DNA of 64,000 nucleotides, from NCBI GenBank assembly GCA_964016885.1, contig OZ024746.1, positions 35,712,001 to 35,776,000 of the forward strand, in the 5' to 3' direction. Origin of the DNA: Eledone cirrhosa (lineage: Eukaryota). The translations under genes and the position numbers were made by a program. The notes beneath the pieces were generated by a model. The model searched no databases, was not told the DNA's origin, and saw nothing but the letters and a program-made list of their open reading frames with translations. Shown one piece after another: positions 11,494-41,532 of this stretch. Numbering within the stretch: position 1 is the first letter of the stretch; each line of letters begins with the position of its first letter.

Positions 11494-11560
11494 TTTTATC
11501 TGATGAAAACACAAATATTATTGCATGATGATGTTTGTTTTTGAAATGCGCATAATAAAA
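11494..11560 (+). ncRNA. type I hammerhead ribozyme (family A)
   Basis: TTTTAT CTGATGA aaacacaaatattattgcatgatgatgtttgttttt GAAA TGCGCA TA|ATAAAA. Confidence 0.8.
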
Positions 11561-11849
11561 TACATGGAACTCCTTTAACCATCTTTTGATCTTATATTAT
11601 ATGTATATATATATATATATATATATATATATATATATATATATATATATATATATATATATATATATATATATATATATATATATATATATATATATGT
11701 ATGTATATATGTATGTATATATATATATATATATATATATATATATATATATATATATATATATATATACATTTATATATATATGTATATACACACACAC
11801 ACAAACACACACACACACACATACATATCTATCTATCTAGGGCGGGTAA

Positions 11850-12085
11850 AATTCCCGAGATCCATGAACGAGTTCTCTCCAATGGTCTCTGTCCCTCATT
11901 AACACTGCCATGTCCTGCTCTCCAACAGACCAGTGTCTATGCTTAGAGCATCAACATATGTTAACCTTGGCCTTCCTCTTTCAGTGTGTCCCAGTAGGAG
12001 CTCCCACAGGAGCACTGAGTGCAGTGTCAACTCTGGATGTCGGTGAGCATGTAGAGCTAACCTCAGTCTCCTCAGTGTCACTTTT
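11850..12085 (-). mobile_element. RTE-clade LINE 3' coding fragment
   Basis: RRLRLALHAHRHPEL...LLWE...GHTERGRPRLTYVDAL resembles the RTE C-terminus. Confidence 0.7.
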
Positions 12086-12449
12086 GATATATGTATTGAT
12101 TAAAAAATCAAAAATCATGAATTCAATATTCAACAAATCTTAAGTGTTATAATTAATCATTTATTTTGAATATTTAATGGCTAATTATTATTAATTTAGA
12201 TTTGACATTTAATACTGGAATAATATTATATATCTTATCAGTTCAATATTATGTAACAGTGGTTCTGTTTGTAAATATCAGTGTGTGCTCATTTGTGTTT
12301 TGTCGTTTGCTGCCCATGGTCCCGCAATCTATGCATTTATGTATGTATATATGTATGCACGTACATATGTATGTTGTTCTGATTTCATAATTTTATAATT
12401 TTTACCAATAGGGACTGAGAGTCGGTTTCTTAGATTGACACGAGACACT

Positions 12450-13010
12450 TTCATTGGAATTTAGACAACATGAAATAGCTAGACACGTATACATGCCCAC
12501 AGGCGCACATGTGTATGCAGGTATGGATATTATCATGTGTTATATTTGTGCATATGAATATGATATGTACCATGCAGTTATTACAGAATTTTGGGAATGT
12601 TTTACATATATTTAAAGTTCCATGAATGGATTGTACTTGTAATTTCCTAACTAGTCGTGTTCTTTCTTGTTCTGTGAAACCCACATACTCAAGATTTGTA
12701 TGGAGGCAGTTACGAACATATCCCAGTGCCTCAATAATTGCAGGTACAAATCTGCTGGTATAGTCAGTGTGGACTATCCGGAGACTAGTCATTTGTTCTG
12801 CATAAATATTCCATTTTCTTTTTCGCAAAGATTTAATATTATATTGGCATCTGTTCAGCAACTAACTTCCAGTACAGTGCATGCTTTCTTTCCCATGTCC
12901 TATATCATTATATCTTCTCTGTTATTCTTGCTTTTTAACCGGGGTATTCACCAGAACATTCCACCAGTATTCTTATATATTATATATGTGTATCTAGAAA
13001 CATGACAAAC
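12450..13010 (-). mobile_element. C-terminal restriction-like endonuclease region of an R4/Dong-like LINE
   Basis: NNREDIMI..KKACTVLEVSC, PAIIEALGYV, LQVQSIHGTLNICKTF. Confidence 0.7.
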
Positions 13011-13144
13011 TGGTGTTAAAGTGCAGATATTTCAAACTATTAATAAAAAAATAACATCAAATTCCACAAAACCATAAGTTGATTGGTCAGCTGTATTGCT
13101 TGTACCCATATATATATTATTATATATATATATATATATATATA

Positions 13145-14270
13145 CACTATCAGTGGTAACCAGCATTGCACGGGATAGGGTATTTTGGAACGCGGGCCGC
13201 CAACAGACCTAATCGTGGAAAACTGCACGTCTGGACAATATGTAAACAAAATAAACCGAATACTCTGATGGCTGGAAAATCTAAGATTTTCTTCGATGAA
13301 GCAGGAAAAAGGTAGGTTTTCACCTAATGCGGGCGCTAGGGGATCAAGAAACTGAATTGTTTTTATGTGCATAATATGCCTTGAAATTTCGGGAAAATCG
13401 GCTAGACGTAACGCCTCAAAAAAGCCATAAAAAGCTGACAAAAATGAAGTTTTTCATCTAATGCGGACCCTAGGCGGTAAAACAGTTGGACTTTCTTTGC
13501 TAGCTGTATGAAGAAGAGACTGACTAACACATTTACAATTTCAAGGAAATCGGTCTGACGTAACGCCTCAAAAAAGCACTAAAATGCTGGAAAAAACGCA
13601 GTTTTCACCTAATGCGGGGCCTAGGGTGTCAACAAGTTGAATTCTTTTATGTCCATAACACCCCTTGAAATATAAATAATACACCTGTAAAGTTTGAAAA
13701 AGATTGATTGGTTACTTCTCGGGTTTCACACACACACAAATACACACACATACACACATACACATATACATGGTGGCTGCCAACTCGTTTTCGATTACGG
13801 CCACTACTTTATATCCATGTAGGAGAACCCCTACCGATGCGCTGAACGAGTGTAACTTGTTAGTCCAGCCAGTGACTTGAAAACTATGGTACAAACACTA
13901 CACTTGCGACAATTATTGACACATAGTGCTGGGCCCATGGTACTATGTGACGATTAGTGCAGAGAGATCTCCAGATATAAAGCTATTCCTGTGCCGTGAA
14001 ACTTTTATAGTGAGCAAAGGCACTGCACAAAGCCAGTCCTACTCTCTTAACCAAGATGATATTTACTAAAAAGAAGAACAAGTTGCAGGTGTTATATCAG
14101 CGTTTTCCTTCTCCTAGAATTCTGCCTTGACAAAGGCTAAGGGTTCATCTCTCAAGGTGATACATACATACATACATACATACATACATACATACATACA
14201 TACATACATACATACATACATACATACATACATACATCCTTCCTCAGTATTATATATATACATATATAGA
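13145..14270 (-). mobile_element. probable non-autonomous Helitron-like element with internal (CATA)n
   Basis: Left end acta..ggtaaccagcattgcacggg resembles a Helitron 3' hairpin on the minus strand. Internal repeats ttttcacctaatgcgg. Right end catcc...tatataga. Confidence 0.5.
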
Positions 14271-38404: not shown

Positions 38405-38572
38405 TTTAATATAGAAATAACTTCTACAGGACTAGAACTGTTTTATTCTGATTTCTTTTGAATGAAACAGTTCTAGTCTTGTAGAAGCCATTTCTACATT
38501 AAACATTATACATTCTACTGATGTATTGTGTACCTTAATTAATATGGTTTCCTCCGATTGAACCCGGGAATC
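38405..38572. mobile_element. family K fold-back, core partly deleted
   Basis: cttctacaggactagaactgttt / gaaacagttctagtcttgtagaag. Confidence 0.8.
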
Positions 38573-39847
38573 ATAAAGGTAATTTGTTTCAAATATCTTT
38601 TAGAGAATTGCAGTAATTCTCAGGGCTCCATACGAATTTTTTGGAACCTATTTTCTTTTTATATGGCCATTGAATATGTATGGCAGAGGAAGAGTTTTCT
38701 TTTTATTTTCATATTTTATTTCTCATATCGCTCATCAAAATCATCTGCTTATTTTATTAGGTTTCGATGATATATTTTCCATAACAGCGGATAGTAACAG
38801 CTACATTTCTTACAAGCATCACTACTGAAGTCCTTGTCACTGTTTTTGTTGCAAGTCCTACTACTAGAAGCATCTACGTTATAGTTATCGTCATATTCTT
38901 TTCCATTTCACTGTCATTGATATTACTGCTACTAATACATGCATAGACAAATACACACACACGCACACGCACGCACACACACACACGCAGGTGACGAACA
39001 TTTGTTAAACAATGTTTGAACACACTATATGAAAACAAATAGTTTGGGTTATCACGTCTGGGGCTATAAAAAATTCGTCATTTGAAATATATATGAAGAA
39101 GTTATGGTATTAAACACTGTCTTTAGAAGGTAGTGCTATCGTCGAAATGTGGTCTGAATATGATTTATTGATAATAAGATTAATATTGTGGCTGCACATT
39201 AGATATCAATCCAGGGACTAGCATAGAACGTGCCAGGTTATTCTGGACCATTAAAAACTTTGCCCCCGAATGGTTACCTATAGGTAACCTTGAGCTCATC
39301 CTCTTCGAAACGCGTGTAGCATGTCGATACACTATAAATATCATATATATATGTAAACGAAACTTCCTCGTTTATTTTCTACACACACACTCACACACAC
39401 ACACACACATATATAGGTCTACATATATATATATATATATATAGTTCTTATTCTATAAATTCATTTGAATAAGTAGGATGTTTAGACATGGATATCAAGT
39501 GGATACAAATAAACATTAATTGTATAATCAGTATTCAATGTGTGCGCTGATAGCAGTTCAATAATTTGTAGTCTGGTCCCATATTGGATAGGCCAATTTC
39601 TACAAAATATCGTCCAGTTTTGCGAGCAAAGGAATATCCTGCTCATGATACATGATATTAATATGTACGTAGCTTAACACACTACAGGGACGTGTACCCT
39701 TATCACAATTAAGGTGGAGATTGGCCATGACAATATTGTCACAGGAATGACACTTTGAATTAGTGGAATATTCCAATTGCCGATGTTCCAGTCTCCATTG
39801 CCTAATTGCACTCACAAGGCCTTGGTCGAATTAAGGTCATAGTAAAT

Positions 39848-40028
39848 AACTGTTTCTACGTTAGGCACAAAGCCAGCAATTACACAGTGTATTACTGGTA
39901 CTTTATTTTATCGACCCCGTAAGGATGAAAGGCAAAGTTAACCTCGGCGGGATTTGAATTCAGAATGGCAAGGGCCGTAACTCTATGCGCCAAAGCATGG
40001 CATCCGACACTCTACCAATACTGCCAAA
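39848..40028 (-). mobile_element. SINE family 1
   Basis: Same motifs as 9205-9392. Confidence 0.85.
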
Positions 40029-41089
40029 TAATACTTGCTTGAATTGTCAAGCAATGTGATCGAACCGAGGACAATGATTGTGAAGCGTATTCATTTTTGC
40101 TGAATCAATTAAAACTGCATTAGTAGATTTGCTGAATCGTAAAAGCGTTGGACAAAACGTTGCGCCCCTACGCAAAACAAATTAGCAATTATTCGTATAT
40201 TAACTGAGATATGTTGAAGGACTCATGCTTTTCTATCGTTCTCATTTTATCTCTTATTTCAATTCTTTATTTTGTCTTACTGTTATTTTTTTCTTTTTCC
40301 CTTTTGTTTCTTACCTTGCTTTTACCTTCATTACGTTATATCTCCTGTATGAAAACAATTCATCTTTCCTTTATACATTTGTGGCTGTATTCATCGAATG
40401 AATTATTGATTTTTTTCCTTTCAACATACCAATTATAATCTATTACCAACTTCATCATTTTTGATGCTTTTATTTCCATATTTTATGGGTTGTGTCTTTT
40501 TTCGAAAATTTTAACATATATTATAAACCATTTTCCTTATTATAGAAAATAGAGATTTTTCTTTTAAATCTCAAGCAGGCATTCAACCACTCTCACTGTC
40601 TCACTAAATATACAAACAAAAACACATACACACACCCACACAGACACCCACACCCACACACACTCATATGTATATATATGTATATATATATATACGCATA
40701 TATATATATATATAAATGCATATATATATATATAAATGCATATATATATATATACCTATTATATATATATATATAATAAATATATATATATATATATATA
40801 TATATATATATATATATATATATATATATATATATATACATATTACACACACACACACACACACACAAGCATATATATATATATATATATATATATATAT
40901 ATATATATATATATATATATATATATATAGTAATAATAATAAATATGAAGACTAAAATCCAAAGAGGGCTCGATAAGGATCAATATATACCAGATATATA
41001 AGAAAGGTAGAGCAAATATTTATTATAATATAATATATTACATTATAATCTATTACAAACTTCATCATTTTTTATGTGTTTATATCAAT

Positions 41090-41307
41090 GAAGGCGTGTG
41101 GCTGAGTGGTTAGAGAATTGGATTCGCAATCGTAAAGTTGTGGGTTCGATTCCTGGACCAGGCGATGCGTTATGTCCTTGAACAAGACACTTTATTTCAC
41201 GTTGCTCCTTCGACCTGGAGTTGCGACCGATAGATAGTATTAGCAATTGGAAAGACCACGGAAACATTGTTCCCTCGGTCAGATTTGACGAAAGTCGATC
41301 GTTCCTT
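41090..41307 (+). mobile_element. tRNA-derived SINE family 2 with 11 bp target-site duplication
   Basis: tggctgagtgg (A box), ggttcgattcc (B box), tgtccttgaacaagacactttatttcacgttgctcc. TSD tttatatcaat at 41079-41089 and 41308-41318. Confidence 0.9.
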
Positions 41308-41492
41308 TTTATATCAATATTTTATGTGTGGTGATTTTTTTCGAAGATTTTAACATATATTATAAACAATTTTAATAAATGATAAATAATTTATATATAT
41401 ATATATATATATATATAGTAAATAAATATATATGTATATATTTACAAACTTACAAACATATGTAACTGCATATATATATATATAAATACATC

Positions 41493-41532
41493 CCGAGCTG
41501 ATGATCCGCGAAGGTGAAACAATTGTTCTCGG
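41493..41532 (+). ncRNA. minimal type I hammerhead (family Q) in a ~145 bp island between TA tracts
   Basis: CCGAG CTGATGA tCCgcgaaGGt GAAA CAATTG TT|CTCGG. Confidence 0.75.

Follow-up and report, generated by a model that had tools for sequence, protein, structure and literature searches.

Small Penelope-like variants of the hammerhead ribozyme reportedly cleave as dimers, going by the title of a 2017 paper by Lunse, Weinberg and Breaker (PMC5785218) and by statements in reviews. Palindromic stem III and loop III were pointed out by Perreault et al. (2011; PMC3088659), in the legend of their Fig. S8, for several ribozymes, most of which allow a dimeric conformation. Families of minimal hammerheads in Penelope repeats, with palindromic 15.2-16.2 and loop 3, pairs on opposite strands and tests of dimers, were described by Cervera and De la Pena (2014; PMC4209133), and reviews (including PMC6765202) repeat the palindromic short stem III, cleavage as a dimer and the association with Penelope. 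Statements about these papers, and about most of those cited below, refer to the sections of each that were considered. Here, a stretch of 64,000 nucleotides of Eledone cirrhosa DNA (contig OZ024746.1, positions 35,712,001 to 35,776,000; the window) is described. It probably holds the remnants of many Penelope-like families carrying predicted type I hammerheads, in which a short palindromic stem III would pair with that of a second copy. Both the palindromes across families and their reading as dimers are already published (Perreault et al. 2011; Cervera and De la Pena 2014).

The window resembles the repeats of PMC4209133 in type I order, in many divergent families per genome and a proposed dimer, in palindromic 15.2-16.2 and loop 3, in copies that are mostly single and truncated, and in opposite-strand pairs 100-700 bases apart. 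It differs from them in its usual stem III length of 8 nt, in a stem II that is frequently long (11-109 nt) and frequently begins with U-U or A-U rather than G10.1-C11.1, and in a high density of motifs. A U-U mismatch replacing G10.1-C11.1 opens stem II in many families, among them those called C, D and Q below, a family with a 16-nt stem III and the motif at 52048-52076; this replacement has been published for one axolotl family. The cross-family observation on stem III is itself that of PMC3088659, made there in other animals, and a test of specificity from family to family is absent from the sections of that paper considered. The term 'heterodimer' is absent from the four hammerhead or repeat papers listed first in a literature search on palindromic stem III, and none of the octopus or cephalopod hammerhead papers listed deals with such motifs by title, although the supplements of PMC4209133 and PMC3088659 and the 2017 paper may cover the former and hold examples of the latter.

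Type I motifs and their stem III

The window is AT-rich, microsatellite-rich animal DNA with broken retroelement open reading frames (ORFs), from an assembly of 3.0 Gb. Motifs were placed in it by a descriptor scan and exact string look-ups. Their core boxes, CUGANGA, GAAA and UH, follow the type I order and are accompanied by stems I and II, and all eight stem III strings given in the first-pass annotation stand directly 3' of GAA (A15.1 being the first base), downstream of CUGANGA and enclosed by stem I. In a 664-kb scan U16.1 was present in 61 and H17 in all of 68 matches, though neither was required. On these features of sequence the motifs are predicted type I hammerhead ribozymes, and self-cleavage is likewise a prediction. 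Rfam gave no match in the window at the gathering score, and no hammerhead family among the 150 matches listed (of 175) at E up to 5; this is probably a gap in the Rfam models, because minimal variants were found with descriptors (PMC4209133). The motifs and their copies in the window are as follows.

11492..11562, + strand: family A type I motif; stem III ATGCGCAT at 11546-11553, predicted cut after 11554
11309..11379, - strand: family A copy, inverted partner of the motif at 11492; ATGCGCAT at 11318-11325
35674..35745, - strand: inverted-partner copy from an older subfamily of family A; ATGCGCAT at 35683-35690
35864..35934, + strand: family A copy, core mutated; ATGCGCAT at 35918-35925
61579-61586, - strand: family A stem III ATGCGCAT
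20244..20327, + strand: family D motif, followed 634 bases on by a second copy on the same strand; ACCATGGT at 20311-20318
20878..20961, + strand: second family D copy, one stem II pair broken; ACCATGGT at 20945-20952
24315..24361, + strand: family C motif with 6-nt stem III; ACGCGT at 24347-24352
24060..24106, - strand: family C copy, inverted partner; ACGCGT at 24069-24074
30821..30900, + strand: family G motif; ATATATAT at 30884-30891
30132..30211, - strand: family G copy, inverted partner; ATATATAT at 30141-30148
41490..41535, + strand: family Q motif with 11-nt stem II; ACAATTGT at 41519-41526
25258..25355, - strand: family H motif with 63-nt stem II and one G-U pair in stem III; ACGATTGT at 25267-25274
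10848..10944, + strand: family H copy; ACGATTGT at 10928-10935, decayed inverted partner at 10723-10816 (-)
35341..35406, + strand: family I copy, diverged stem II; ACCACTGGT at 35389-35397
27042..27103, - strand: family I copy, core mutated; ACCACTGGT at 27051-27059
32746..32807, + strand: family I copy whose stem III has a point change, ACCACTCGT
33376..33493, - strand: family V copy, decayed at U16.1; stem III at 33385-33392 (commonest form in the family ACTCGAGT)
22791..22872, + strand: candidate for family B; ATATGTGT at 22856-22863 (ACATGTGT in other copies)
23770-23850, + strand, and 24583-24655, - strand: partial copies of the ATATGTGT family
43850..43971: second candidate for family B, an inverted pair; 16-nt stem III at 43859-43874 with 4-bp arms and a central CTAG palindrome
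38467-38482: remnant of the family with the 16-nt stem III
43993..44459: decayed inverted pair with stem III as in G (ATATATAT) and stem I arms as in A

Thus the palindromes that the first-pass annotation had named for A, D, C, G and Q were all found as stem III of type I motifs. The strings that it called near-palindromic in H, I and V also lie in motifs, but they depart from a palindrome in different ways. In family H a single G-U pair persists in each of the 25 copies fetched; family I has an unpaired centre, which gives a C-C mismatch when dimerised; and the V string is a decayed perfect palindrome, since the window copy ends in C and 8 of 14 fetched copies have perfect ACTCGAGT. For B a near-palindrome was claimed with no sequence attached, and either ATATGTGT (22856-22863) or the 16-nt stem III (43859-43874) may have been meant. 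Four further matches to GAA plus a string (at 39310, 39087, 42439 and 57683) were set aside as chance, as none of them has an exact core and three of the four have G at the cleavage position.

Beyond the window, 138 genome segments (L031-L168) were sampled at round coordinates, not at random, and eight of them adjoin the window. Core, stem I and stem II alone were conditions of the scan, leaving stem III free. Strict matches numbered 96 in 1.30 Mb outside the window, against about ten expected by chance from decoys, and the window itself (13 per 64 kb) is about three times denser than this sample. A rough extrapolation gives motifs of the order of 200,000 genome-wide. Because copies are not independent, matches from about 2 Mb were clustered, giving 45 families (a few of them probably false) with at least two distinct copies each, 39 with a short and six with a long stem III. 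Family 19 was re-split by hand at its second GAAA before the per-family stem III statistics were taken; families 31, 38, 43 and 44, which are likely false, stay in those statistics and are left out of neighbour counts, and family 44 is also omitted from the comparison of cross-pairing energies. Forty-five families in about 2 Mb add a dense set of natural variants to the published class.

The pattern of stem III palindromes is real and well above chance. Perfect palindromes were found in 41 of 68 matches with the real core and in one of 36 decoy matches (664 kb, six decoy scans), and for the inner pairs alone palindromes numbered 69 among 115 matches versus none among 64 in seven decoy scans (1.44 Mb; a scan that favoured U16.1 and excluded G17). 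Taken by family, 30 of the 39 short stems are fully Watson-Crick, four contain G-U and five are mismatched. Stem III sequences do differ between families while self-complementarity is kept, as the first-pass annotation had proposed, in 34 of 39 short-stem families. The central 4-mer, which would be the loop of a monomer, is a Watson-Crick palindrome in 24 of the 30 even-length families (chance 0.08 each), and still in 13 of 19 when each distinct string has one vote. Among the 12 distinct 8-mers, 31 of 36 positions pair, versus a shuffle mean of 15; none of 20000 shuffles reached 31. Three of the six long-stem families are likely false; two of the three credible ones end in non-palindromic loops (GGGA and TTTG) and one keeps a central CTAG. 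These two non-palindromic loops are an internal control for the dimer reading.

Probable pairing of two copies

Predicted cleavage as a dimer (a double hammerhead) is the best reading of the palindromes, and is not new. Nearest-neighbour energies make the 6- and 8-nt stem III hairpins of A, C, D, G, H, Q and V unstable (+1.4 to +5.0 kcal/mol) and the corresponding homoduplexes stable (-3.2 to -11.2 kcal/mol), and two families have a stem III segment of only 4 nt (ACGT, AATT) that is unable to close a hairpin. In such a dimer each strand would run through the joint helix III into the core of its partner. By this topology both stems I would be made between the two partners, with each core cutting the opposite strand. 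The choice of a partner would depend on stems I and III jointly. Transcripts of active master elements, either partial tandems or two RNAs held together, would be what selection acts on, rather than the solo and inverted copies of which the window is full. The suggestion that selection acts on tandem or in-trans dimers is partly supported; the tandem fits few copies (4 of 32 in the window and 20 of 213 in the sample).

Several observations weigh against this account. Self-complementarity is missing in five of the 39 short-stem families (a false match may be among the five), including an abundant AGAACT family (21 copies) and three ACC/AGC-pyrimidine-GGT families. Efficient cleavage as monomers is described for invertebrate hammerheads that have a stem of two base pairs and a tetraloop (PMC7229834); a segment of 8 nt therefore need not imply a dimer, and family I can close three pairs with a triloop (-0.6 kcal/mol). 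Dimers of this kind show low activity in vitro (PMC4209133), and the hammerhead of one Penelope element depended on protein in vitro, where insertion could proceed without it (PMC11167929). As for the link to Penelope, no Penelope-type ORF was found within 1.5 kb upstream at any of 30 D, 30 G or 25 I loci, one was found at 1 of 25 H loci, and the ORFs linked to A had no Pfam hit. For these D, G, I and H families the link to Penelope comes from the anatomy of insertions described below.

It is improbable, though the best placed of the alternatives, that motifs of 8 or 9 nt cleave mainly as monomers, with two pairs and a tetraloop or three and a triloop, assisted by a protein of the element and with the dimer as an option. 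The efficient invertebrate monomers just cited, the protein-assisted cleavage of that one Penelope hammerhead in vitro (PMC11167929), the existence of non-palindromic families and the scarcity of same-strand neighbours all fit such monomers. However, a monomer leaves unexplained why the loop should be self-complementary, as it is in 24 of 30 families, and segments of 4 and 6 nt cannot, or barely can, close a hairpin.

Stem III as a proposed partner code

The first-pass annotation went further and took each palindrome as a possible family-specific pairing code. A two-fold symmetric helix of identical strands must be palindromic, so under dimer pairing a palindrome needs no selection for a code, and compensated change between families is what drift under the dimer constraint is expected to produce. 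That the palindromes were selected as such a code, preventing cross-cleavage among co-expressed families, is very unlikely. Stem III pairing is indeed impossible for most family pairs: out of 741 pairs, 38 are compatible in stem III, 65 in stem I and 18 in both. Family A shares an 8-bp cross-compatible stem I with two families and is separated from both by stem III; the summed helix energies of the two heterodimers are -7.4 and -13.1 kcal/mol, compared with -23.5 kcal/mol for the A homodimer.

A code would predict fewer collisions between strings, but more were seen, and this counts against it. Six stem III strings recur, each in two to five families. Perfect 8-mers are present in 17 families, and of the 136 pairs that these form 18 have the same string, versus 2.1 under a uniform draw; merging families related in their flanks leaves 17 of 120 versus 1.9, a weak test in which some likely relatives stay unmerged. 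Family G is not alone in using ATATATAT, which is also the stem III of a second family with decayed copies at 43993-44459. Four families with ACAATTGT have stem III in common and only 0-1 cross pairs in stem I. Helix III between Q and H (-6.1 kcal/mol) is as stable as those of the homodimers (-6.4 and -5.8 kcal/mol), while their stems I do not match, and two of three families sharing stem I cross-pair (-16.3) as well as they self-pair (-14.4, -15.2). Families do not, then, each have a palindrome of their own that is incompatible with all others. With strings reused, Q and H able to cross-pair and 5 of 39 families lacking self-complementarity, a code in stem III alone is unsupported, and the reading of a unique code is largely refuted.

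Stem I, which by topology would be swapped between partners, sets most families apart. As partners in a double hammerhead exchange stem I, the swap of stem III that had been proposed as a test would be confounded; a heterodimer needs a matched stem I, and not only a matched stem III. Stems I and III might together be a selected two-part key to the partner among dozens of co-resident families, which we regard as unlikely. Stem I would separate unrelated families that share a palindrome, while sisters that share stem I (such as A and its relatives with ATATATAT and ATATGTAT) would diverge in stem III to stop cleavage of each other's RNA in trans. If such a key were selected, retroelement families would be seen to interact in trans at the level of RNA and would provide natural sets of orthogonal two-strand ribozymes.

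Least credible of all, and refuted by the decoys, per-family counts and shuffles, is that the palindromes are by-products of AT-rich sequence, of (TA)n slippage or of a reader's choice of self-complementary matches. In its favour, (TA)n arrays abound in this genome and ATATATAT, which is shared most often, is itself a microsatellite word, but decoy scans of the same DNA yield only 1/36 and 1/72, palindromes containing GC are common (ACCATGGT, ACTCGAGT, ACGCGT, ATGCGCAT, ACGATCGT) and pair types change on both sides across strings.

Copy arrangement, Penelope-like elements and other motifs

An inventory by homology lists 32 copies in the window, some of them decayed, and missed at least those at 43859 and 38467. 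Thirteen are solo, 15 have only an opposite-strand neighbour and four have a same-strand neighbour within 2 kb; for 213 copies in 1.38 Mb of sample the numbers are 134, 59 and 20, slight undercounts of neighbours owing to segment ends. A second copy on the same strand is present at some D, G and A loci, not at most copies. In 55 of 59 cases the members of an inverted pair are divergent, and RNA reading through such a pair would contain a sense motif and its complement, predicted to form a long hairpin rather than a dimer. Inverted, 5'-truncated insertions have been described for Penelope-like elements (PMC8557442), and by analogy the inverted pairs appear to be insertions of this type. The anatomy of Penelope insertions is also seen in 5'-truncated copies, partial tandems, adjacent inverted copies and microsatellite targets.

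A match to a Penelope-type ORF lies on the same strand within 1.5 kb upstream of the motif in family Q at 12 of 30 loci, in A at 3 of 30 and in H at 1 of 25. At the three A loci it lies at 1000-1008 bases, one of these being the locus from which the query came. Loci of V and B were mostly too short for this search, and a genome search with family C gave no candidates and was uninformative. Families D and G are probably non-autonomous. They form non-coding head-to-tail units, of 634-660 bases in D and 1477 bases in G; pieces of ORF adjacent to D had no Pfam hit, and the ORF that lies between two copies in L309 is not taken to belong to D, since homology among D copies stops short of it. As short, ORF-less type I units arranged head to tail, D and G are like non-LTR retrozymes (PMC7229834; bioRxiv 10.64898/2026.07.22.740005); unlike these they exceed the reported 170-400 nt and are found as pairs rather than long arrays.

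One broken ORF in the window contains the domain pair of Penelope-like elements, namely RVT_1 together with GIY-YIG.

45996..48557, - strand: broken Penelope-like ORF; RVT_1 and GIY-YIG Pfam matches at 45996-47900

About 600 bases downstream of it lies a decayed minimal hammerhead-like motif (45365-45400, -) with a 4-nt palindromic stem III, a GNRA-type loop II and two core changes, present as a single copy in the DNA examined. Another hammerhead-like motif (51270-51315, +) stands just downstream of a Penelope-type ORF at 49549-51030, with a further copy at 18215-18260 (-). It has a very short stem I, and its stem III is AGATTT or AGAACT according to the copy (11 distinct copies). It is separate from the non-palindromic 21-copy AGAACT family, in which AGGACT variants would give tandem G-A pairs in a dimer. 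A very abundant family (70 distinct matches) occurs as inverted pairs at 52420-52555, 2780-2890 and 34940-34995; it keeps GAAA, a stem of five pairs whose loop is palindromic and perhaps one arm of stem I, and no CUGANGA box was seen in the copies viewed.

More surprising than the stem III palindromes is a knotted hammerhead-like motif in a 630-base tandem at 28590-29910, on the minus strand of which the boxes are ordered cleavage site, GAAA, CUGANGA.

28623-28742 and 29249-29368, - strand: knotted hammerhead-like motif; also at L046, L060, L105, L116, L164, L188, L217 and L290

This box order is that of type SGC (Eckert et al. 2023). Unlike SGC as described in the sections of that paper considered, arms adjacent to the core pair with other partners and stem II has at most one pair (7 of 10 copies), its place being taken by extra helices, while stem III is intramolecular and non-palindromic. 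Over 10 copies, 95% of cells pair in a predicted knotted structure of seven helices, compared with 28-46% in slid controls; the comparison flatters this structure, which was derived from the same, related sequences. In these copies 10 of 35 pairs change on both sides, three of them in stem I and none in stem III. Each of two subfamilies gave more than 1000 first-look candidates.

The window also contains a fragment of a Pif1 helicase 2B domain (Pfam; 15387-16205, -), probably a Helitron remnant, and a broken reverse-transcriptase ORF of a non-LTR-like element (4960-7250, +), whose match to RVT_1 is below the cut-off.

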